Shown: piece after piece, positions 7,813 through 55,854 of the stretch | Layout of the letters: every line of letters starts with the position of its first letter | Position numbering within the stretch: position 1 is the first letter of the stretch | From: Candidatus Enterousia sp. | GTDB lineage: Bacteria; Pseudomonadota; Alphaproteobacteria; Rs-D84 | Direction: 5' to 3' | Assembly: GCA_045546155.1 (NCBI GenBank) | Contig: JAZQCG010000002.1 | Span: forward strand, 74,533-138,532 | Length of the DNA: 64,000 bases | Made by a program: the position numbers and the translations under genes | The notes under the pieces: generated by a model | The model's input: the letters and a program-made list of their open reading frames with translations, nothing else | Databases searched by the model: none | Told to the model about the DNA's origin: nothing

Positions 7813-8361
7813 TTATTCTTCTTTTTGTTTGTTTTGTTCTGCATAACTAGGGCGCAGGTACATTGGTACAACTGGCTCTGTATTTCCTGCAGTTATTTTC
7901 TGTTTTACGATGTTTACACCCAACCTCAAATCAAAAGGTTTGTGACCGACCGTTCGTGGCCAAGCCATTTGTTTTGTCTCTAATTCTTCGATTTCCATTG
8001 TGCACGGGGCCAGGCCCGGTGCCGCAACAAAGAAATCGCCACGTCCAGAATCCAGCGCAACAAACGCATCTGGTGTTGCTGCTAAATACAGGTCGAATAA
8101 ACTAATTCCGACAACTGGAATTTTTAATCCCATTGCCAGCCCTTTGGCATATGCGATGCCTAGGCGGATGCCGGTAAAACTGCCTGGGCCAACCACAATA
8201 CCAATCGCGGATAAATCAGACCATTTTGCGCCGCACTCAGACATAAATTTTTCACATTCGGTTGGCAACGCAACCGACTGTTTTTCCACCGCAACAGACT
8301 TGTATTTATCTTCTAATACAAATTCCAGATTCCCACCCGATGTATTAATAATTAAAATCAT
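7813..8361 (-). CDS. tsaB: tRNA threonylcarbamoyladenosine biosynthesis protein TsaB (YeaZ)
   Basis: MILIINTSGG...GPGSFTGIRLGIAYAKGLA, the inactive Kae1-paralog signature. Confidence 0.8.
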   Translation of the reverse strand: MILIINTSGGNLEFVLEDKYKSVAVEKQSVALPTECEKFMSECGAKWSDLSAIGIVVGPGSFTGIRLGIAYAKGLAMGLKIPVVGISLFDLYLAATPDAFVALDSGRGDFFVAAPGLAPCTMEIEELETKQMAWPRTVGHKPFDLRLGVNIVKQKITAGNTEPVVPMYLRPSYAEQNKQKEE

Positions 8362-8720
8362 TTTTGTTTGTCCTTTAATTCGTGCAACAAATCCCAAAAA
8401 CAGTGTGAAATCGTTCCGTAATTTATTTTACTTTTAGATGTTTCGTTATCAAAGACATACGATTGATACTGTTTAAAGGGCGGATAAGACTTAGGCATTT
8501 TGGTTTCTATAACACGTATTGTATACTTTTTACTGCGTGCTATAACAACGGTTTCTAGCATACCTGGATGTTGCGAGTTCTGTATGCGTGTAAAAAAATG
8601 CCATTTATTGGTGTTGGCATAGTCCGCCACAGAATTAAAGAAATCAATCTGTTCTTGCCCGTCGCCAAACACGACGGCTTCAATTGGTCTGCCGTTAAGT
8701 ACTACTATATCTGTTTTCAT
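8358..8720 (-). CDS. hypothetical protein (120 aa), translationally coupled between the Lon-like gene and tsaB
   Basis: 4-nt overlaps at both ends (8717/8720 and 8358/8361). No similarity to the Lon S16 peptidase domain. Confidence 0.45.
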   Translation of the reverse strand: MKTDIVVLNGRPIEAVVFGDGQEQIDFFNSVADYANTNKWHFFTRIQNSQHPGMLETVVIARSKKYTIRVIETKMPKSYPPFKQYQSYVFDNETSKSKINYGTISHCFWDLLHELKDKQK

Positions 8721-10474
8721 ATGCGTGCCCCAAATCCAATTTTCTTTGAAAATCCAGCCGTCTGGCGCACAGATAACAATTCATCGATTTTATCGCATGT
8801 AAATTCAGTGCGCACATCTTCGGCATTGTTTTCCAATAACGCGCGTCGCAAGATTGCGGTTAATTCGCGCTGTAATTGGCGCACGCCCTGTTCGGATGTA
8901 TAGTTTTGAATAATATGACGGATTGCATCATCAGATATAACGATGTTTTCCATATTCCATCCGGTGTCACGCGCCGCGCGCTTGATTAAATGTTCACGTG
9001 CAATCTGAACTTTTTCTTCGGTCGAGTATCCTGGGATTTCAATGATTTCCATACGGTCTTTTAACGCGTTTGATAGATTCAAACTGTTTGCAGTTGCAAT
9101 AAACAAAACGTTTGATAAATCAAAGTCAACCTCCAAATAATGGTCACGGAAAGCCTTGTTTTGTTCCGGGTCCAGAATTTCTAGTAACGCAGATTCTGGG
9201 TCGCCGCGCCAATCGCGTCCCATTTTATCGATTTCATCTAAAACGATAACTGGATTATTTGATTTACAGCGCTTTAACGCATCCATGATGCGTCCCGTTT
9301 GTGCACCGATATAAGTTTTGCGATGACCACGGAAATGCGCTTCATCTGACACCCCGCCCAGGGATATTCGCTGATATTTGCGTCCCAGTGCTGTTGCGAT
9401 TGATTTCCCCAGTGATGTTTTCCCAACACCTGGCGCACCAACAAAGCATAAAATCGATCCCTGATTAGATTTAGTCTTTTTCATAACCGCAATGTGTTCT
9501 AAAATGCGTTCTTTGACACCGCGCATGCCCGAGTGTTCAGAATCCAGAACCCCACGCGCCACGCTTAAATCAATTTGCGATTTATCAGATTTGTTCCATG
9601 GCATCGCCAATAATTCATCCAGATAGGTCTTTAATAAACCGCCTTCGTTTGACATTGGTGACATAGATTTCATACGCTTCCACTCTGCCAGTGCTTTTTC
9701 TTTAGCATCGCGGGGCAGGTGGGATTTTTCAATCCGTTTGCGAATGTTTTCTGTATCCATTTCCAAGTCGTCTTCACCCATTTCGCGTTGGATAGCGCGC
9801 ATTTTTTCTTGCAAGATTGCCTCGCGTCGACCTTTTTCCATTTGCTGATGGATACGTTTGTTAATAGATTCTTCTATTTTTGCTGTTTCCACCACCAGGT
9901 TTACTTGTTCCAAAAGGATGATTAGCTTTTCCCGCCACGATGTCGCCCCCAATATTTTCAAGGCAGGCTCGACATCCATTTCAATTGCTTGGACAACAAA
10001 ATCTATAAATGCTGGTAATGGATAGTTTGCAACAACATTGCGCAGCTTTTCAATTTTGAATTTCTTTGTTCCGGCCAAAAATTGCATGTTTTCTGCGATT
10101 CTATCACGCAGTGCAATTGTTTGCTCGTGGTTTGTATCATCTTGGATTGCGATTGTTTCAACATCCCCAACAAAGATGCCGTCTTCGGTAACGACGTTGC
10201 TAATTTTGACCGCATCTGTTGTATGAACAATTGCATGTACTGCGCCATCTGGCATGCGCAAAATTTGAACAATGTCGCCAATTGTTCCAATATCATAAAT
10301 GTCCTTTGGGCTGGATGGATAATTCCATGTGCGCTGCGCCACCAATACCAATCGCTGCCCCGTCTTGCCAGCGGATTCAATACACGTGATGGATGTTTTG
10401 TTATCGATGAACACCGGTACAGTCAGTCCCGGATGCACCACAAAGTCGCGAAACGGTAAAATATATTCTTTCAT
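8717..10474 (-). CDS. Lon-like ATPase: LonA-type N-terminal substrate-binding domain plus AAA+ module, with no S16 peptidase domain
   Basis: Walker A GAPGVGKTS, Walker B VIVLDEIDK, sensor motifs, and a Lon N-domain (PFRDFVVHPGLTVPVFI). The protein ends at ...KKIGFGARI, where the protease domain would begin. Confidence 0.8.
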   Translation of the reverse strand: MKEYILPFRDFVVHPGLTVPVFIDNKTSITCIESAGKTGQRLVLVAQRTWNYPSSPKDIYDIGTIGDIVQILRMPDGAVHAIVHTTDAVKISNVVTEDGIFVGDVETIAIQDDTNHEQTIALRDRIAENMQFLAGTKKFKIEKLRNVVANYPLPAFIDFVVQAIEMDVEPALKILGATSWREKLIILLEQVNLVVETAKIEESINKRIHQQMEKGRREAILQEKMRAIQREMGEDDLEMDTENIRKRIEKSHLPRDAKEKALAEWKRMKSMSPMSNEGGLLKTYLDELLAMPWNKSDKSQIDLSVARGVLDSEHSGMRGVKERILEHIAVMKKTKSNQGSILCFVGAPGVGKTSLGKSIATALGRKYQRISLGGVSDEAHFRGHRKTYIGAQTGRIMDALKRCKSNNPVIVLDEIDKMGRDWRGDPESALLEILDPEQNKAFRDHYLEVDFDLSNVLFIATANSLNLSNALKDRMEIIEIPGYSTEEKVQIAREHLIKRAARDTGWNMENIVISDDAIRHIIQNYTSEQGVRQLQRELTAILRRALLENNAEDVRTEFTCDKIDELLSVRQTAGFSKKIGFGARI

Positions 10475-10535
10475 AGCTGACTAAATATAATACATTTTGT
10501 GAATAATTCAAGAACTATGAAATCCCACTGCATAT

Positions 10536-10568
10536 AAAAAAATCCCCCGTCTGGGGGACTTTTTTTAA
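10536..10568 (-). terminator. rho-independent terminator (CCCCC-gtct-GGGGG hairpin plus T-run)
   Basis: Hairpin seen in sequence downstream of the small membrane protein gene. Confidence 0.6.
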
Positions 10569-10801
10569 CGACGACGGTTGTGACCGCCAAAACTGCCATG
10601 TTGGGCGCTGTTGCTGGAACGTTTTGATAAATAACGTGCTGCAATTAAAACCAGCCATTCTAACGACAAAGCCGCCAAGCCCATCAATGTATTTTCAATA
10701 CCGTTCATCCAACCCAATACATAAACCAATTGGGCAACAAAAGAAATGTATAAAACACCGAAAATACCGGTAAAGAATACTTTTTTGATTTTTCCAAACA
10801 T
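10565..10801 (-). CDS. small membrane protein (78 aa, two predicted TM helices)
   Basis: Hydrophobic segments. The ORF is followed by a terminator. Confidence 0.4.
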   Translation of the reverse strand: MFGKIKKVFFTGIFGVLYISFVAQLVYVLGWMNGIENTLMGLAALSLEWLVLIAARYLSKRSSNSAQHGSFGGHNRRR

Positions 10802-10837
10802 TTTCTTGTCCTTATGTTCCGTTTTTATAATAAATTA

Positions 10838-11180
10838 AAAATGCCGGGTTTCTGGTGCCATGTACCCGGCGAACACCGCAATTGCTTAAACGAATACGGT
10901 CAACAATCGCCAACCATATTCAACGCCATAATTAGGCAGCCATTGCAAGGCGAACGTTGTCGTTCGCAGCGATTCTATCGCCATTCAGTTTTTAGTTGGC
11001 TTTTAACGACACCACGTCGGATTCACCCAGTTTGTCTTTCATCATCTGTCGAATCTATGTCAGCCCCATAACCAAATATGACCATAAATCATATCAGGTA
11101 ATGGTGGAGCTGTGGGGTACTGCCCCCCAGTCCATAATGACTATTTCACAACGGATTCAGAATCATCATCGTTTGCACGA
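10838..11180 (-). ncRNA. ssrA: tmRNA (ssrA), two-piece permuted alphaproteobacterial type. Acceptor piece is about 11180..11102 (ends GCTCCACCA). Coding piece starts with GGGGCTGACATAGATTCGACAG at 11067 and runs to about 10838. Tag ORF reads (A)ANDNVRLAMAA-stop.
   Basis: 5' GGGGCTG pairs with 3' CAGCTCC-A-CCA including a G3:U70 wobble. Tag reading frame GCT GCG AAC GAC AAC GTT CGC CTT GCA ATG GCT GCC TAA. Terminator hairpin GCCGGGT..ACCCGGC plus T-run at 10841..10870. Confidence 0.7.
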
Positions 11181-11187
11181 CCCCAAG

Positions 11188-11216
11188 ATTATAGTCTTTT
11201 ACACTGGAAATTGCAA
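11188..11216 (-). promoter_or_regulatory. sigma70-type promoter TTGCAA-N17-TATAAT driving the tmRNA precursor
   Basis: Perfect -10 and near-consensus -35 with 17-nt spacer, about 8 nt upstream of the acceptor-piece 5' end. Confidence 0.5.
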
Positions 11217-11249
11217 GTTTTTAGATTATAATGAATTCAAAAGGTATAA

Positions 11250-12756
<1,507 letters not shown>

Positions 12757-22541: not shown

Positions 22542-22572
22542 AAAAATCCCGCAATTTGCGGGATTTTTTATT
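22542..22572. terminator. terminator AAAAATCCCGCAATTTGCGGGATTTTTTATT (identical copy at 24508)
   Basis: Seen in sequence. Confidence 0.7.
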
Positions 22573-23401
22573 ATTCGCCCAACGGGCACGCATCTGAAAA
22601 TACATAAGTGCCCAGTGTGTCAAATTGTTCTACCCCAGAAGGGAAAAATAGCGCACATCCAGAAACCTGATTCGTCAAACACGACACCACATCACGTCCA
22701 ACGTATATTTTATTCTTATTTGTACAAGAATCATTAATCGTAAGTTCTGGTCTGTCTATTTCAACAAACCCAGATGGGCAATCACCTTGGGTTGGGGGTG
22801 TCCCAATATCTATTTCTGCCTCTGTTCTTACTGAGCATGCACTACTACTGGTGCTGCCGGATGATGTTGTTGTGTATCCATCTGGACAAGGTGTACAGGC
22901 AGATTGACCAGTTTTGTTGTTATAAGTGCCAATTGGGCAACTGTAACATTGTCCCGCCTTTCCATATGTTCCTGCAGCGCAAGATGTACTGCAGCTTGTA
23001 TTGTTTGTCGCTGTATTTGTTGTGCCATCTGCGCATGTGTTGCACTGCAGTTGTGTGTTTGTGGTATTTGTATAGCTTCCTTGTGGACAGCTAACACATG
23101 TTTTTTTAGAAGTGTCAAAGTACTGCCCTGCGTTACACCGGCCACACATACTAGGGTATTTTGCCACCTCAGCTGCGCCAGCTGCAAAACCATTCGACCA
23201 TGCGACACTGCATATATTTGCGCACATTGTATCATAATTGCTGAATCCTCCGGTAAAGCTGTCACATGTAGAAGTAATCTGAGTCCCAGATGGTAGTTTT
23301 GAACATGTTTCAGCCAATTCAACGCATTCATAAGCCATATAGTTAGCCTGGGCAACATTTGTTAATAAAAATACACAAAATATAAATAAAAAGCGTTTCA
23401 T
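22571..23401 (-). CDS. secreted Cys-rich protein with tandem CxxCPxGxY...C repeats (GCC2/GCC3- or ephrin-receptor-like pattern)
   Basis: Signal peptide MKRFLFIFCVFLLTNVAQA. Repeats such as CVSCPQGSYTN, CYSCPIGTYNN, CTPCPDGYTT. Confidence 0.5.
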   Translation of the reverse strand: MKRFLFIFCVFLLTNVAQANYMAYECVELAETCSKLPSGTQITSTCDSFTGGFSNYDTMCANICSVAWSNGFAAGAAEVAKYPSMCGRCNAGQYFDTSKKTCVSCPQGSYTNTTNTQLQCNTCADGTTNTATNNTSCSTSCAAGTYGKAGQCYSCPIGTYNNKTGQSACTPCPDGYTTTSSGSTSSSACSVRTEAEIDIGTPPTQGDCPSGFVEIDRPELTINDSCTNKNKIYVGRDVVSCLTNQVSGCALFFPSGVEQFDTLGTYVFSDACPLGE

Positions 23402-36517: not shown

Positions 36518-37475
36518 GTGTGCAATAATTTTATTATGGTAAAAATAAAAGCAGATACATATTTAGCGTTTCAACGTGCGACCAATCCAAAGATGGCTGA
36601 AAAAGACTATTTGGAATGTCTTGTGCTGGAAAAATTATTCCAAGATGAATATGTTTCTAAAAACCTTGTGTTTGCTGGTGGTGCATCTGTGACCAAGGCG
36701 TATAATATAAGCAACCGTATCGGCCAAGATATTGATTTGGCATGTTCTGATTTCAAGGATATTCCCGATAATCGTTCCAAGAAAAAATTAAATACATTTC
36801 GCAGAGATTTCAAAGCCTATGTTTTCGAAGTAATTAGACCCGCCATCAACAATATTATTAACCAAGACTCGCAATTCATGATATTGACTGATCGTGGATT
36901 GGCATGCACTTGAAAACAAAGAACACTTTATGTCATCGCCCACTTTGCATTTGCTATACAATTCTAAATGCGGCCCAGAAATGGGGCATTTATGTATTGA
37001 AATAATCCCACGCAAATACATGCCAGATACAATTCAATATCGTTCTGTTGTGCCATATTCGGTGGGTAAACCGATGGGCAATATTCCAACGGTTGCGTAT
37101 GAGCAAACTTTTTGGGACAAGGTCTATGCCTTGCACTCAAATGCTTTGTCGTCCGCACCACATTTCGACGAAGGGTTTTCGCGCCATTATTATGATGTCG
37201 CGACATTGGCGCAATATGTCGATTTAGACAAAACATATCACATGTTCAGTGACATAGAAGCGCACCAGAAAAAGTACACTACCAAAGATTTACCAGACGT
37301 AAAAAGTCCATCAGACATTATCCTACTGCCCGATGGCAAAACATTGCATGGGTTGGACACGGATTATCAATCAATCGGCAACGCATTTAATGCGCCACGT
37401 GAAAGCTGGGCTGAAATTGTTCAAATGCTAATCGCGCTGTCGCACAGATTAAAAAATATACAAGGGGGACGTTAA
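36518..37475 (+). pseudogene. AbiEii/AbiGii-family nucleotidyltransferase (type IV TA / abortive-infection toxin family), split by a frameshift near 36894..36913
   Basis: N-terminal ORF carries LVFAGGASVTKAYNISNRIGQDIDLAC (NTase GG..D.D motif). The C-terminal body continues in another frame (36894..37475, GTG-initiated in the ORF track). Confidence 0.55.
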
Positions 37476-38002: not shown

Positions 38003-38007
38003 TTAAA

Positions 38008-38040
38008 AAAAATCCCCCAATCGGGGGAATTTTTTTTATT
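38008..38040. terminator. bidirectional terminator AATCCCCCAATCGGGGGAATT
   Basis: Seen in sequence. Confidence 0.65.
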
Positions 38041-38428
38041 TGTTTGTGTTCTTTTCTGCAGATGTTGCTGCCAAGTCTTCGACGATACGCGCCTTTTTAC
38101 CTGACAACCCACGCAAGAAGAACAACTTAGCACGACGTACTTTACCGATACGAACCTTTTCGATTTTTTCAATCGATGGGCTGTACAGTGGGAACTTGCG
38201 TTCTACACCAACACCGTATGATTCACGACGTACTGTAAAGGATGCATTATTGCCCATGCCGCCATCGCGTGCGATAACAACACCTTCGAAAACCTGGATA
38301 CGGAATTTGTCGCCGTCTTTAATTTTAACGTGAACCTTTAATGTATCCCCAGCTTTGAAGTTTGGGATTTTTTTGTCGCCCTTTAATTTTTCAATCTGGG
38401 CTGCTTCGATTTTTTTAATAATGCTCAT
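38036..38428 (-). CDS. rplS: 50S ribosomal protein L19
   Basis: [36 protein letters not shown]... Start trimmed from ORF 38584. Confidence 0.9.
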
Positions 38429-38430
38429 TT

Positions 38431-39111
38431 TTAGTTTTCCTTTATTAAGTCCGGTCGACGTTCTTTGGTTATGTCGACCGATTGTTGTTTCCGCCACCGT
38501 TCGATATTGCCGTGGTGACCGGACAGCAGGACTTCTGGGACACTTTGTCCACGCCATACTGACGGGCGGGTGTATAACGGCCATTCAAGCCCCCCGATTT
38601 CGAAACTTTCATTTTCTGTGGTGTCTGTTCCACCGTGAACTACATTATCCATCACGCGAACGCAACTGTCAACAAAAACTTGGGCTGCAATTTCGCCGCC
38701 GGACAATATATAATCACCAATGGATAATTCCATTATACCATATTGTTCAATAACGCGTTCATCAATTCCTTCGTACCGACCACACAGCAGGGTGTATGTT
38801 GCATCTTGGTCTGCGATAAATTCGCGTACAATTTTCTGGTTCAGTGTTTTGCCACGTGGTGAAAAATATATAATTTTCCCTGGGTTTTTAATAGAATCCA
38901 ATGCGTCGCCTAAAACATCTGGGCGCATAACCATGCCTGCGCCGCCGCCGAACTGGGTGTCATCAACGCTGCCGTAATTATTGATGGCAAAATCCCGAAT
39001 GTTAATCACATCATACGACCAAATTCCACGCTCCAATGCGCGACCAACCACGCCACCCGACAGTGTGCCTGGAAACATTTCTGGAAAAATAGTCAGTATA
39101 TTAAAGTGCAT
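38431..39111 (-). CDS. trmD: tRNA (guanine37-N1)-methyltransferase
   Basis: [13 protein letters not shown]...SPRG, the SPOUT knot region. Confidence 0.9.
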
Positions 39112-39112
39112 T

Positions 39113-39388
39113 TTAATGAACTTTCCCTTTTTCAGCATTAAATCGACAGTTTGTACACATACATTTTCCAATGTCGAACATAATGTTAACTGTTTCAACT
39201 GATGCTGCTTCTGCTAAACGAACAGCGATTTTATCTGGTTCGTTGGCCGGGGTAATAACCTTGGTGTCAATCCCAGCACGATATACCCGCACAACAGGAC
39301 AGCCTGCATCGTATTCCTTTTCTGGCATATTGCATTTTACAACAAACTTTTTACTAATTGCATCAAATTGAAATGTCTTGTTTGGCAT
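39113..39388 (-). CDS. small Cys-containing hypothetical protein inserted between rimM and trmD
   Basis: 91 aa with Cys pairs (KC..GCP, CMCTNC). 1-nt gap to the trmD start. Confidence 0.4.
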   Translation of the reverse strand: MPNKTFQFDAISKKFVVKCNMPEKEYDAGCPVVRVYRAGIDTKVITPANEPDKIAVRLAEAASVETVNIMFDIGKCMCTNCRFNAEKGKVH

Positions 39389-39397
39389 AATTAATCC

Positions 39398-39862
39398 TTA
39401 GTTTACGTATATAATTTTTGCATCCATATCAACGTTTGCGCCAACAAATGATACCATGTCGCCATTTTCCAGCTCTAAAATATCACCTGCGCCATAGTTT
39501 TGTATGCATGCCACGCGCCCAATAATATTGCCACGCTGATTCACGGTCATTCCGATTAAATCAGTCTGGTAATATTCTTGTTCGTCCAGTTTTGGTAAAT
39601 CTTCGCGCCCAATAAACAATTCCGTTCCACGCAGTGTTTCTGCAGCATTTCGGTCATCAAAGCCGTTTACCTTGGCGATAATGATGGTTGAGTTTGGAAT
39701 AACGCGTACAAACCTAAAATCTTTGGATGTAAAACGATCGGAAATCACGTTAAATTTTTTAAAGTCCGATGGTGTATCAGAATATGTCTGAATACGAACT
39801 TCGCCCCGAATTCCCTGGGGGGCAACAATTTTTCCAACCAAGATTTTTTCGTTATTTTTCAT
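39398..39862 (-). CDS. rimM: 16S rRNA processing protein RimM
   Basis: ILVGKIVAPQGIRGEVRI... (PRC barrel). Confidence 0.85.
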   Translation of the reverse strand: MKNNEKILVGKIVAPQGIRGEVRIQTYSDTPSDFKKFNVISDRFTSKDFRFVRVIPNSTIIIAKVNGFDDRNAAETLRGTELFIGREDLPKLDEQEYYQTDLIGMTVNQRGNIIGRVACIQNYGAGDILELENGDMVSFVGANVDMDAKIIYVN

Positions 39863-40184
39863 TTTGTTTTAATTGTTTGATTATATTTTCATAACGTATT
39901 TTTCGAATACACTGTACCTCAGACGTCAGTGGGCATTCGTTACCACTGTCCGATGTAACCATAATACAGTTCATCTTATGTGTGGCCATATAGTCAACCG
40001 CATCACGCCAAGAAGTAAAACGCCAGTCTTTTTGTCTGCAATATGTACCGTCGTACGGACAATCAAATGCCGAACTTGCGCGTCCGTCTTTGTGCAAAGT
40101 GGGTCTCATTATAAACTTTCGTTCATCTGCAAGGCTGCCACCACTAAGCATCATATCTGGATTAACTAATTTATATTCTGACAT
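39852..40184 (-). CDS. small Cys-containing hypothetical protein (110 aa) within the rpsP-rimM interval
   Basis: ORF overlaps the rimM start by 11 nt. Confidence 0.4.
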   Translation of the reverse strand: MSEYKLVNPDMMLSGGSLADERKFIMRPTLHKDGRASSAFDCPYDGTYCRQKDWRFTSWRDAVDYMATHKMNCIMVTSDSGNECPLTSEVQCIRKIRYENIIKQLKQNEK

Positions 40185-40209
40185 AATCTTATTCCAGTCT
40201 GATTACAGA

Positions 40210-40428
40210 TTATCTTTGTTTTTGCAGTTGTTTTTCTTTGTGTTCGCGTAATTTTATGCAATCGCTTGCATATGCAGGGCACAATCCACCGGTTAAAAAT
40301 ACAACTGGTCTGTTTTCATGCATCGCTTCATACATCTGTCGATAAAACTCTTCGCTACGCTCTGTCTGGGTACATTCCAAATCATTTGCGCTTGGGCATC
40401 TGTCACCAATACACCAACTCTTTACCAT
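40210..40428 (-). CDS. small Cys-rich hypothetical protein (72 aa; possible Zn ribbon)
   Basis: C.GDRCP...EC...GGLCP....DC. Confidence 0.4.
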   Translation of the reverse strand: MVKSWCIGDRCPSANDLECTQTERSEEFYRQMYEAMHENRPVVFLTGGLCPAYASDCIKLREHKEKQLQKQR

Positions 40429-40432
40429 GATG

Positions 40433-40708
40433 CTACCTTTGTCGCTCGTATGTATGCGGTATTTTTAATAATTCCTGCTTTATTTGCATAAAGTAATCAT
40501 GCAAATTAATACCGTTTTCCATGGCAAAGGACATCATGTCATCAATATTGTCCAAATAACAATCGTGCATAAGGGTTTTAAGTTCTTTGTCTTGAAACCA
40601 TACCTCATGAAAAGCCCTGTGAATAAAGGCCTTGCACATATTAAGACGACTTATTGCTTTTGGTGCCTTTGCCATTGGATAAACGTTTCGGAATAAATTA
40701 TTCTGCAA
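40433..40708 (-). CDS. small hypothetical protein (91 aa) immediately downstream of rpsP
   Basis: ORF overlaps the rpsP stop by 11 nt. Confidence 0.4.
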   Translation of the reverse strand: MQNNLFRNVYPMAKAPKAISRLNMCKAFIHRAFHEVWFQDKELKTLMHDCYLDNIDDMMSFAMENGINLHDYFMQIKQELLKIPHTYERQR

Positions 40709-41147
40709 CCGCTTCGGTTGTTTCTTCGGCTGCTGGTGCAGCTGCTTCCGCTTCTGCAGCTGCCTTAGCGGCGGCTTCTGCTGCGGCTTTTTCTTCGGCG
40801 ATTTTTGCCAGCTTTTCAGCTTTGTCTTTAATCTTCATCTGTGTTTTTTCAGATTGCAGATGTTTCTTTGTCTGAACTGGAATCGCCTTTGCTTTTACCA
40901 AGCCAGCTTTGGCCAAGAATTTATGTACACGATCAGATGGCTGTGCACCTTTTGCCAACCATGCTTTTACTTCGTCAATTTTCAATGTAACGCGTTTGTC
41001 GCTGTCTTTGGCCTGCATTGGGTCATATTTACCAACAACTTCCAGAACATTACCGGAATTACGTGCATTGCGTGAATCTGTCACAACAATGTGATAGTAT
41101 GGGCGTTTTTTTGCACCAAAACGAGCCAAACGAATAACAGTTGCCAT
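40698..41147 (-). CDS. rpsP: 30S ribosomal protein S16 with Ala/Glu-rich C-terminal extension
   Basis: MATVIRLARFGAKKRPYYHIVV... Confidence 0.9.
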   Translation of the reverse strand: MATVIRLARFGAKKRPYYHIVVTDSRNARNSGNVLEVVGKYDPMQAKDSDKRVTLKIDEVKAWLAKGAQPSDRVHKFLAKAGLVKAKAIPVQTKKHLQSEKTQMKIKDKAEKLAKIAEEKAAAEAAAKAAAEAEAAAPAAEETTEAVAE

Positions 41148-41377
41148 AATTTACTCCTTTTTATTTATAACTGTTTTAACCACAAAGAAAACCGCCATCA
41201 AGGACGAAACTCGTCGGATGATGTACCACACGCATACTGCGAACTGGTGTTATAAAAATGGCAATCTTTGGGATTTGCGCGCCTATTATGAACCAAAAAA
41301 TCAAAAAAGTCAAATGGTTATTAAAAAAAACGCCACAATCCGAAAATAAATCCGACCACAAGGGTCGGCTATATTCT

Positions 41378-41451
41378 TGGTGCGGGCGAAGGGAATCGAA
41401 CCCTCGCCTAAAGCTTGGGAAGCTTTCGTTCTACCATTATACTACGCCCGC
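41378..41451 (-). tRNA. tRNA-Gly (anticodon CCC)
   Basis: 74 nt. Acceptor GCGGGCG/CGCCCGC. Anticodon loop TTCCCAA. T-arm GGTTCGATTCC. Terminator hairpin at 41351..41370. Confidence 0.8.
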
Positions 41452-53414: not shown

Positions 53415-55793
53415 TTATTCACCACTGTTTGTTTTCGCCACATAGCACATATTGTTTTCAAAATACCCTCCCAACATAGAACACTGTTGCTTATACCAAG
53501 TATCCGAAAGTGTGCATGTCTGGCTACTGTCGTTCCATGTTGCGATTGGTGTTTCACCTTCTGTATTGCTGGTTAAGCATTGAACATAGGCCGTGTTTTC
53601 TACACAAATACCGCCAAAATCGTCTTTATTGGGTGTTTCACCCCCAAAAGCGACCTTTGTAAACGCAGGTAACCAATTTGTCATTTCTTCAAAACCCTTT
53701 GCCTCAGCGGAATACCAAATTCCTTCAAGATCTTCGCACATGGTTGACATTTGACCTTCCAAATCGTCAACCACATCTTCCACAGAAACTTGTAATTTTT
53801 GCCGTACTGTTGTTGCCAAATTACCATATGTTTTTTCCGTTTTTGTTGGATCTGAACAATTTGTTATGGCGTACGCTACAAGTGTTTTGGCTAAATTTTT
53901 ACCAGGATTCGAACCATCATAACTATCCACAAAGACACCATTTGTATTCAATCCCAATTTACGACATTTCCACGGATACCCCATCTCACCTGACTCGGGC
54001 GTACATAATTCTTCTACATACGCATCAATTGCATCTTCGCAACCTTCGGCTACACGCGTATTATCAACATTATCAACAAAACTTAACAAGGCTGTCAAAC
54101 CACACGTTGCGCCATTGCTTATACGACCACTACCATCAAATTCGCAGGCTGAATTTTCCGTCTCATTACCATACAGTGCTGCACACGCAACAACCTTATC
54201 TTTACACATTGCTTTTGCAGCATACGCACTTATTGCCCCCGCCGCTTTTGATGTTGTGTCATCAAAGTCCTTTAAGGCCCCAGATTGAGTATCATAACAC
54301 TCCTTCATCGTAGAAACACAAGACATACGAACAGATTCCAATTTTTCTTCTTGGGCCTGGGAAATTTCAATCAATGCTGCGCGTTTAAATTCTGTCCAAA
54401 CCAAATCAGAAATATCACGACATGAATCCAAGGCTGTTGTCGCAAACATTTTGCGTTCATCTAAAAATTTTGCGAACGTATCGTTTTGTCCCAGAACATC
54501 AGCGCTTTGACCATCTAAATTTATCAAATCTGCCAACTGGAACAAACGCGCGGTATAAATGGGCTCACCCGTTGTCTGATTGATAAACGCCCCCGTAGGA
54601 TCTAAACAACGCTTATAGTTTGCGCCACAGGCGGTATCCGCCAACATTGCAGAACGCACCTTGTCTAAACACTCGTTTACGTCCTGGGAATTATGGGCAC
54701 GATATTCTTCCAATCGCGCTTCACGCAAGATTTTTTCAGCCTGGCGAACTGTATTTTGAACCTGTTGACGCTTGGCATCAATGCTTCTTTCATATGCATT
54801 ACAATCCTGGGTAATCATGATGCCATATGCACTTTTTGCCATGTTTGCAACCGCACCACTGGGGCAATTATCTGCAACCATTTCTGCGCACTGTTTGTGT
54901 ACCTGGGTAAATAAATCACCACCTTCCAGGCTTGCAAAGTCAACTTCGTTTGCGCCGCCAAATATAGATGATGACGAACCACCCCAAACGTCCCCAATAT
55001 CAGCCGAAAAATCCAACGACATTACACCCAGCGACGTAGAACTAGATGAATTTGATGCTTTCTTCTTGCCAGAAATCAAATCACCGATTTCCGCCAACAG
55101 TTTTGCCGCACCACTGGTATCATTTTTAATTGCCGCTTCACCAACCGTGGCGGAATACATTGCGTCAACTTCTGCTGCGGTCTTGTCAACCGCGTTCAGG
55201 TTGTTATCTTCAAATTGTTGCAATAAAACCTTTGCCTGGTCCAGGGCATCTTCGGTATCACGAAAACCTGTAAAACGGTCACTACAGAAACAGCGCCGAT
55301 ATGTATCATTGGCCTTGGCACAGAATTGATCCATACATGTCGCATATGCTTCACGACATTGAGCATAACCACCACCAATCTTGGACACATCATCAAAAAC
55401 AGCCGTCGCACGTGACATTTGTGCACGGGACACACCCGTACGCGCAACATTTACCGCGCTGCGCACTGGGGCAACTGCGGAACGTGCACTGCGCGCCATT
55501 GTGGTCGCACTGCGTGAAATAGTTTTTGCGTTGCGCGCGTTACGCGATGCGGTTACCGTCCCCGCACGTGATGCAACCGTCGGGGTTGCCGCCGCACGCG
55601 AGGTTGTTGTTGTGCGTGCCGCCATTGCACGTGGTGTGCCAGACACATCGCCACGCTTTACGTCGCGCCCCGCCGCGCGTGCCGGCGCGATATTACCCGC
55701 CACCGCCGCACGTGAATTTTGTGGACCAACTGCATCCGCCGAACCAGCCACCAAAAAAGCCGCCATCAGCGCAGAAAACCGGAAAATTTTATT
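53415..55793 (-). CDS. large secreted Cys-rich protein with N-terminal Ala/Arg/Thr-rich low-complexity region (GC-rich DNA, 55400..55760)
   Basis: Signal peptide MNKIFRFSALMAAFLVAGSADA. CRExxxxC...C.C module shared with the 16236..17487 protein. Confidence 0.5.
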   Translation of the reverse strand, partial: NKIFRFSALMAAFLVAGSADAVGPQNSRAAVAGNIAPARAAGRDVKRGDVSGTPRAMAARTTTTSRAAATPTVASRAGTVTASRNARNAKTISRSATTMARSARSAVAPVRSAVNVARTGVSRAQMSRATAVFDDVSKIGGGYAQCREAYATCMDQFCAKANDTYRRCFCSDRFTGFRDTEDALDQAKVLLQQFEDNNLNAVDKTAAEVDAMYSATVGEAAIKNDTSGAAKLLAEIGDLISGKKKASNSSSSTSLGVMSLDFSADIGDVWGGSSSSIFGGANEVDFASLEGGDLFTQVHKQCAEMVADNCPSGAVANMAKSAYGIMITQDCNAYERSIDAKRQQVQNTVRQAEKILREARLEEYRAHNSQDVNECLDKVRSAMLADTACGANYKRCLDPTGAFINQTTGEPIYTARLFQLADLINLDGQSADVLGQNDTFAKFLDERKMFATTALDSCRDISDLVWTEFKRAALIEISQAQEEKLESVRMSCVSTMKECYDTQSGALKDFDDTTSKAAGAISAYAAKAMCKDKVVACAALYGNETENSACEFDGSGRISNGATCGLTALLSFVDNVDNTRVAEGCEDAIDAYVEELCTPESGEMGYPWKCRKLGLNTNGVFVDSYDGSNPGKNLAKTLVAYAITNCSDPTKTEKTYGNLATTVRQKLQVSVEDVVDDLEGQMSTMCEDLEGIWYSAEAKGFEEMTNWLPAFTKVAFGGETPNKDDFGGICVENTAYVQCLTSNTEGETPIATWNDSSQTCTLSDTWYKQQCSMLGGYFENNMCYVAKTNSGE

Positions 55794-55854
55794 CATTGAA
55801 TCTTTCACTTTGCTTCTCTCTTAGGTCTATTCTACCATTTTTTTGGTATTTGAA

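Follow-up and report, generated by a model that had tools for sequence, protein, structure and literature searches.

Small, mostly cysteine-rich genes at the two rimM junctions of the operon rpsP-rimM-trmD-rplS in Candidatus Enterousia

What are four small open reading frames (ORFs) doing between the core genes of a ribosomal operon? The question comes from a 64,000-nucleotide stretch of a Candidatus Enterousia genome (GenBank assembly GCA_045546155.1, contig JAZQCG010000002.1, forward-strand positions 74,533 to 138,532). We call this whole stretch the window and count positions from its first letter. The core genes rpsP, rimM, trmD and rplS lie there on one strand, in the standard order and with strong Pfam matches in all four. 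An earlier note made from the sequence had described three small ORFs in the 836 bp between rpsP and rimM and a fourth between rimM and trmD, and its coordinates, interval length, overlaps and gaps were all correct. Our comparisons indicate that these four ORFs (ORF-A to ORF-D) are genes that reside in the operon throughout the genus. The eight genes, all on the minus strand, are, in order (lengths in amino acids, aa):

40698..41147, minus strand: rpsP, ribosomal protein S16, 149 aa (Pfam PF00886, 1.2e-23), with a strong Shine-Dalgarno sequence, AAGGAG
40433..40675, minus strand: ORF-A, 80 aa from ATG, family A (public annotation, dN/dS)
40210..40428, minus strand: ORF-B, 72 aa, family Z, B-type (alignment, AlphaFold2 model, dN/dS)
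39852..40184, minus strand: ORF-C, 110 aa, family Z, C-type (homologues, profile comparison)
39398..39862, minus strand: rimM, 154 aa (Pfam PF01782, 1.1e-16), starting inside ORF-C
39113..39388, minus strand: ORF-D, 91 aa, family D, with Shine-Dalgarno sequence TAAGGA
38431..39111, minus strand: trmD, tRNA m1G37 methyltransferase, 226 aa from ATG 39111 (Pfam PF01746, 7e-43)
38036..38428, minus strand: rplS, ribosomal protein L19, 130 aa from ATG 38428 (Pfam PF01245, 2.4e-42)

The spacing is tight throughout. ORF-C overlaps rimM by 11 nt, as does ORF-A with rpsP when read from TTG 40708; 4 nt separate ORF-A from ORF-B and 25 nt ORF-B from ORF-C, and ORF-D begins 9 nt after the end of rimM and stops 1 nt before the trmD start. 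For ORF-A the ATG at 40675 (80 aa) is a more likely start than the TTG (91 aa), and public annotation (P0042-P0053, NCBI/ENA) calls that 80-aa hypothetical protein.

Enterousia, a fermentative member of the uncultured order Rs-D84, carries genomes of ~0.75-1.0 Mb (PMC12306168). Scanning with TrmD gave 80 species-level genomes whose TrmD is 81-99% identical; every one is a gut metagenome-assembled genome labelled Alphaproteobacteria or Candidatus Enterousia. The set used for comparison consisted of 77 species loci, covering ~6 kb either side of trmD. We refer to the rpsP-rimM and rimM-trmD junctions as slots and to the small genes in them as slot genes.

Coverage by same-strand ORFs (at least 60 aa) is 97% between rpsP and rimM and 95% between rimM and trmD, against 5% and 1.4% in shuffled sequence, and no shuffle reached the observed coverage (0/2000). 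Wherever a gap is present in the 77 loci (4-854 bp between rpsP and rimM, 0-1790 bp between rimM and trmD), it is tiled by same-strand ORFs of ~50-170 aa. Frameshifted remnants, which would point to decaying DNA, were not seen in the gaps of other species; these are either tiled by intact ORFs or absent. Slot genes are called by public annotation (NCBI, ENA and Logan records), and some occur as natural fusions, A+Z as a 145-aa protein and Z+Z at 135-159 aa. Pairwise Nei-Gojobori ratios of non-synonymous to synonymous divergence (dN/dS) have medians of 0.21, 0.16 and 0.11 for families A, Z and D, never exceed 0.39, and are about 0.1-0.16 for ORF-B. The cysteine patterns of the proteins stay invariant even at 15-30% identity. 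As judged from this conservation, the four small ORFs are real protein-coding genes, and dN/dS of ~0.1-0.2 places slot ORFs under purifying selection.

Iterated profile searches over the slot ORFs of the species loci sorted them into families. Family Z, with sixty-seven domains, includes both ORF-B and ORF-C and has the pattern CP-x5-7-C, helix, CP-x5-8-C, helix, with four invariant cysteines. Its B-type members carry an invariant EFYRQ-like helix and its C-type members the motif W..AV.Y. When profiles were built from the diverse members in the species loci, the two subtypes matched with a probability of 95% (E 1.8e-8, 59 columns, all four cysteines in register), while narrow sets from databases only gave a weak match (E 0.017). 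ORF-B reads CP-x6-C, helix EFYRQM, CP-x5-C, second helix and a terminal KQR; C11, C19, E27, R30, Q31, C50 and C57 are invariant in the B-type alignment. We built its AlphaFold2 model on that B-type-only alignment, as a joint B+C alignment had the B-type out of register, and obtained helices at 21-38 and 58-71 with a predicted local distance difference test score (pLDDT) of 79. ORF-C has the motif CPYDGTYC ... W..AV.Y ... CP-x6-C.RK.RY and a conserved 40-aa N-terminal extension. It has fifteen homologues at 47-97% identity, and two public contigs that share the gene order carry an identical ORF-C.

Family D, which contains ORF-D (C19-x10-C30P ... C78-x2-C81), comprises sixty-one domains with the pattern C-x5-10-CP ... 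CxxC, the last element near the C-terminus. Essentially only its four cysteines are invariant among 54 aligned sequences, and profile comparison found no similarity between families Z and D. Family A, with ORF-A, is of another kind: twenty-one domain copies of ~76 aa, helical, sometimes tandem-duplicated or fused, with the motif DSYxxNxxxLxxYAxxNxIDxxxYI and no conserved cysteine. The earlier note had seen paired cysteines in all four ORFs. That stands for ORF-B, ORF-C and ORF-D, with four invariant cysteines each, and fails for ORF-A, whose two cysteines are not conserved in its family; the four motifs it cited, rather than coming one per ORF, all belong to B, C and D, two of them to D.

A further thirty-eight slot ORFs fall into smaller families, most of them also cysteine-rich. 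Across all slot ORFs, 159/183 have at least four cysteines, and cysteine makes up 5.5% of slot-protein residues compared with 1.6% in long ORFs of the same loci. This enrichment, together with the four invariant cysteines per family, led us to infer that ORF-B, ORF-C and ORF-D bind a metal, either zinc or an Fe-S cluster, in keeping with the earlier suggestion of small metal-binding proteins. The rimM-trmD slot also holds further families that have no member in the window. One is a 96-128-aa family with the motif C.CV..C.QF..YPVD.WGRRIIP...CP, found in loci L033, L036, L038, L039, L043, L051, L054, L056, L062, L066, L068, L069 and L080; smaller ones include a 47-49-aa cysteine-poor protein in L032, L033 and L035.

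Database searches returned no named family. Pfam, NCBIfam, PHROGs and PADLOC hold no family that matches ORF-A to ORF-D, and none that consistently matches their relatives; sequence searches of the PDB with the Z and D profiles were empty, and the ORF-B model had no PDB fold match. In a database of 5.8 billion proteins, the family Z profile found 41 proteins and a combined A+D profile 25 (fifteen A-type, nine D-type and one RsfS-A chimera), all unnamed or 'hypothetical'. The A+D counts come from a concatenated profile rebuilt with A in every row, the first version having had mostly gaps in its A columns. The chimera (P0057, on a 554-bp ENA contig) is an 89-aa predicted protein in which an RsfS-like N-terminus (PF02410) is followed by family A's C-terminal half, and is probably an assembly artefact. 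With the B-type profile, a full HMMER scan over 1.84 billion cluster representatives gave 79 matches. One of them, the 4163-aa P0121, was rejected as a giant protein that contains a kinase and is unrelated; the other 78 were credible (49-145 aa), and none of these was fused to a known domain. A search of viral contigs with family D yielded no relative; the family Z alignment has no stretch conserved well enough for a search of this kind. The three families thus appear, from these searches, to be undescribed orphans restricted to Candidatus Enterousia and its close relatives.

Were these genes inserted into an operon that is otherwise contiguous? The earlier note assumed so and suggested looking for the uninterrupted arrangement in related genomes. 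Only three of the 77 species loci have it; the other 74/77 contain one or more slot genes, up to a maximum of seven. Nor is the operon contiguous everywhere outside the genus, since Bacillus subtilis has rpsP-ylqC-ylqD-rimM-trmD-rplS (PMC10100781). The numbers of species by slot-gene count are as follows:

rpsP-rimM slot: no gene in 17 species, one in 38, two in 21, three in 1
rimM-trmD slot: no gene in 15 species, one in 38, two in 19, three in 3, five in 1, six in 1

The window species, with three plus one, lies at the rich end of this range. In the sampled loci, all 21 family A and 67 family Z domains map to the rpsP-rimM slot only and all 61 family D domains to the rimM-trmD slot only, and when the small proteins were used in place of trmD to retrieve loci, the operon context was the same every time. 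Slot content differs even among species with TrmD >90% identical, and gene order varies as well: ORF-B precedes ORF-C in the window, and a C-type gene precedes a B-type gene in L016, L027 and L034. Between the window and its closest relatives (L003 and L004), ORF-C is present or absent as a single clean 359-bp indel. The ends of this indel fall in the similar A-rich 3' termini of ORF-B and ORF-C, and it therefore fits an unequal exchange between tandem paralogues. As seen across these loci, the slot families are resident parts of the operon throughout the genus, held at fixed slots, with a copy number that shifts by local tandem duplication, fusion and clean deletion, which is not what the word 'invaded' had implied.

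One locus departs from this pattern. In L082 the rpsP-rimM slot is empty, and a Z-like gene (89 aa) and a D-like gene (86 aa) sit at the two ends of an island downstream of rplS (8285..11726 in that locus, minus strand, opposite to the operon). The island spans 3.5 kb and holds four unmatched genes of 325, 255, 140 and 305 aa, whose products had no matches and are in no other sampled locus. At this site other species carry Metallophos and AbiEii genes. The window's own AbiEii-family gene (36518..37475, plus strand) is broken into two ORFs of 131 and 193 aa by a 1-bp insertion near 36896 and is intact (312 aa) on the near-identical public contig L001; the split copy could be either a pseudogene or a sequencing error.

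The surroundings of the operon bear on how the small genes are expressed. The relevant features are:

41378..41451, minus strand: tRNA-Gly (anticodon CCC), the upstream neighbour (ARAGORN; Rfam tRNA, 68 bits)
41368..41352: terminator-like hairpin of tRNA-Gly, the upstream edge of the operon (terminator scan)
41285..41313, minus strand: promoter-like site upstream of rpsP, TTGACT, 17 nt, CATAAT (consensus scan, 10/12; a pattern match only)
38004..38038: strong bidirectional terminator hairpin closing the operon, an inverted repeat with a 15-pair stem and T and A runs at its sides (terminator scan)
40433..40441 and 40210..40221: purine-rich 3' ends in the window, examples of slot ORFs that end in lysine or arginine

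The terminator scan found no convincing internal terminator between rpsP and rplS. With a single promoter-like site and a single end hairpin, all eight genes from rpsP to rplS therefore look like one transcription unit. The earlier note went on to expect expression at ribosomal-protein levels, which does not follow from co-transcription: in the Escherichia coli operon, rimM and trmD have a ribosome density ~ten-fold below that of rpsP and rplS, with mRNA depth being equal (PMC4378010). Shine-Dalgarno sequences in the window are clear for rpsP, ORF-D, trmD and rplS, moderate for ORF-B and weak for ORF-C, and ORF-A and rimM have none. Slot ORFs end in lysine or arginine (KQR, KTK, RQR and similar) in 89% of cases, after which come TAA and, a few bases on at most, the next ATG; the share with such an ending is 43% among long six-frame ORFs (at least 150 aa) from the window and the species loci. 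Since these codons fall right before the next start, the purine-rich 3' ends probably also act as ribosome-binding site for the following gene, which would fit tight translational coupling. They may also offer microhomology for the gain and loss of cassettes.

Several other features of the window are recorded here. The S16 protein has an Ala/Glu/Lys-rich C-terminal extension of ~40-50 aa (40698..40850, minus strand) that cannot be aligned to rpsP of most related species; only the first ~113 residues match. We saw no other credible small cysteine-rich genes in the 64 kb. Two larger ORFs are unusually cysteine-rich (22571..23401, minus strand, 276 aa with 24 cysteines; 53415..55808, minus strand, 797 aa with 28 cysteines), and there is a two-piece (permuted) alphaproteobacterial tmRNA gene at 10840..11220 on the minus strand (Rfam RF01849, 144 bits).

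The gene between the two slots is itself unusual. Mean pairwise identity is 63% for RimM, compared with 83% for RpsP, 85% for TrmD and 90% for RplS, and at TrmD identities of 90-95% the median for RimM is 68%. At non-synonymous sites RimM diverges 2.5-5 times as much as RpsP, TrmD and RplS, making it the fastest-evolving core gene of the operon in the genus. A dN/dS of 0.06-0.19 indicates that rimM is still constrained despite this speed. In several close pairs rimM also exceeds its neighbours in synonymous divergence (1.22 against 0.28-0.49 for L001 and L003), and the central block of the operon may have been exchanged between lineages. This signal is only suggestive, since most pairs are near synonymous saturation and trmD has the lowest proportion of synonymous differences (pS) of the four core genes. 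RimM is a uS19-binding protein that organises the head of the 30S subunit (PMC9032327), and its fast evolution would be consistent with a co-evolving protein-protein interface.

How might these observations fit together? The reading we favour, with moderate confidence, takes the small ORFs as real lineage-restricted operon genes, with ORF-B, ORF-C and ORF-D as metal-binding accessory partners of RimM and ORF-D possibly of TrmD. Each of the three would hold zinc or an Fe-S cluster through its four cysteines, be made alongside RimM, and act as a partner or modulator of RimM-dependent assembly of the 30S head, and ORF-D possibly of TrmD. We count the overlap of ORF-C with the start of rimM toward the proposed link to RimM. 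The small RNA-binding KhpA/YlqC and YlqD of Firmicutes, in the same slot, are a precedent for accessory genes there. A role in ribosome or tRNA maturation is our best guess for the slot proteins.

Several points weigh against this proposal. Metal binding, association with the ribosome or RimM, and expression are predictions from sequence. The slot genes are dispensable, with three species having none and copy numbers running from zero to seven, which would be unusual for a core assembly factor. The window's ORF-A and ORF-B are near-neutral (isoelectric point, pI, about 7), and the family medians reach only 8.4-9.1, unlike typical RNA binders. The arrangement in L082 shows that the families are not strictly tied to rimM, and the species loci reach only ~6 kb either side of trmD, with any copies elsewhere in the genomes outside that sample. 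The structure model of ORF-D is unreliable (pLDDT 54.6 from 10 sequences) and too poor for a fold search. Finally, the speed of RimM could be unrelated to the small proteins.

A bolder formulation, which we consider tentative and rather unlikely, is that throughout this genus of reduced-genome gut Alphaproteobacteria a variable array of small four-cysteine proteins brackets rimM and may co-evolve with a fast-changing RimM. The array would then be either a so far unknown, lineage-specific accessory layer in the assembly of the 30S subunit or an interface of conflict aimed at ribosome biogenesis, carried within an essential operon. The second possibility has a fuller version, in which the slot genes would be arms-race cassettes with fast turnover. 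Their products could, for example, protect or mimic RimM or the 30S head when phage or toxin proteins attack it, and diversifying pressure would explain both the variable content and the rapid change in RimM. We regard this version as unlikely. The pairwise dN/dS of 0.1-0.2 looks like plain purifying selection, and the strict slot specificity resembles vertical inheritance with local duplication and loss; there were no PADLOC or PHROG matches for the proteins and no viral-contig relative in the family D search. On the other hand, such cassettes would suit the differences in slot content among species with very similar TrmD, the clean ORF-C indel between close relatives and the divergence of RimM. 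The raised synonymous divergence of rimM hints at exchanged alleles, a signal weakened by saturation in most pairs. The variable AbiEii-carrying region lies directly downstream of rplS, and it is there that L082 has its orphan island, bracketed by the Z-like and D-like genes.

Zinc-ribbon ribosomal proteins serve as a zinc reserve in many bacteria. The four-cysteine slot proteins could mainly serve to hold zinc or iron, with variable numbers tolerated since dosage would matter more than sequence, and with the supply scaling with growth through the ribosomal operon. The cysteine enrichment of slot proteins, zero to six copies per slot and the near-absence of invariant positions other than cysteine in family D all suit this explanation. 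Family Z does not behave in the same way: it keeps a non-cysteine surface motif (E27, R30 and Q31 within EFYRQ), distinct B-type and C-type helices and the 40-aa N-terminal peptide of the C-type, and these conserved features suggest specific partners. Family A, for its part, has no conserved cysteine, and ~5% cysteine is far below the content of metallothioneins, none of whose Pfam families was matched. Buffering or storage of metal as the main function is, we believe, a distinctly poor prospect.

The earlier note had also raised the idea of a selfish addiction module, a toxin-antitoxin system or similar, recently inserted into an essential operon. Small, adjacent, co-directional genes in an operon that is hard to lose would be the expected form of such an element. 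Yet the same slots are filled in 74/77 species, and the families are not obligatory partners: some species have Z and no A, others A and no Z, and D is found whether or not A or Z is there. No toxin-antitoxin, defence or phage family was matched in Pfam, PADLOC or PHROGs, no repeats or recombination sites were found flanking the slot genes, no paralogues exist elsewhere within the 64-kb window, and family D again has no viral-contig relative. This idea is largely refuted by the comparisons and now seems very improbable. Reading the ORFs as spurious, or as decaying intergenic DNA, has almost no chance of being right, as the missing Shine-Dalgarno sequences of ORF-A and rimM, the weak one of ORF-C and the lack of known-family matches are set against a conservation pattern that, in our judgement, has already refuted it (dN/dS far below 1, invariant cysteines down to 15-30% identity, ORF coverage well over chance and no frameshifted remnants in related species).

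Accessory genes at the rpsP-rimM junction were already known in the form of KhpA and YlqD. What is new is three undescribed families, two of them with four cysteines, the filling of both rimM junctions, and the variable numbers across a genus. The slot genes have been kept in genomes shrunk below 1 Mb, where non-essential genes would be expected to be lost. Should they act together with RimM or TrmD, they would be maturation factors of the ribosome or of tRNA that are new and specific to this lineage, and an example of an essential operon still evolving at its gene junctions. Otherwise, the locus would still show cleanly, in nature, how genes duplicate, fuse and are lost within a ribosomal operon. 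In either case structural studies can draw on it for two small putative metal-binding domains, in dozens of species-level variants.

How do these genes compare with known systems? Bacterial metallothioneins of the SmtA type differ from them in Pfam family (no match) and in composition, cysteine being only ~5.5% of the slot proteins. Integron cassette arrays likewise consist of variable runs of small, promoterless, same-strand ORFs read from one upstream promoter; in the slots, however, attC-like inverted repeats are missing, the genes lie only 1-25 nt apart, no integrase is found among the neighbours, and the cassettes come from a few slot-specific families, not a diverse pool. The zinc-ribbon ribosomal proteins (bL31, bL32, bL33, bL36, uS14 and bS18) and their cysteine-less paralogues are also small four-cysteine proteins of ribosomal operons with lineage-variable content. 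The slot proteins have no sequence match to them, and their spacings (C-x7-C...C-x6-C in Z, C-x10-C...C-x2-C in D) are not paired CxxC knuckles; only family D has one CxxC, and the model of ORF-B shows two helices and no ribbon.

A small four-cysteine protein beside an RNA methyltransferase brings to mind Trm112, the zinc-binding methyltransferase activator, as ORF-D ends 1 nt before trmD. Neither ORF-D nor its relatives match the Pfam Trm112p family, and many Enterousia species are without any D gene. For TrmD, a SPOUT-class dimer, no activator subunit is known.

The closest parallel is one of position. KhpA/YlqC, a KH-domain protein, and YlqD are small (~80-130 aa), lie in the same rpsP-rimM slot and are co-transcribed with rimM and trmD (PMC10100781; bioRxiv 10.1101/2023.10.30.564711), and in Fusobacterium and Gram-positives khpA shows synteny with rimM and trmD (bioRxiv 10.1101/2023.10.30.564711). 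They show accessory genes to be common at this junction. With ORF-A, ORF-B and ORF-C they share the rpsP-rimM position as a positional analogy only: neither ORF-A to ORF-D nor any of 115 members of the families, in a scan that admitted E values up to 1, matched the KH family, and ORF-A to ORF-D had no Pfam or NCBIfam match to the YlqD family. In contrast to KhpA and YlqD, the Enterousia proteins are built on four cysteines or another helical motif, number from zero to three in the rpsP-rimM slot, fill the rimM-trmD junction as well, and appear confined to one lineage.

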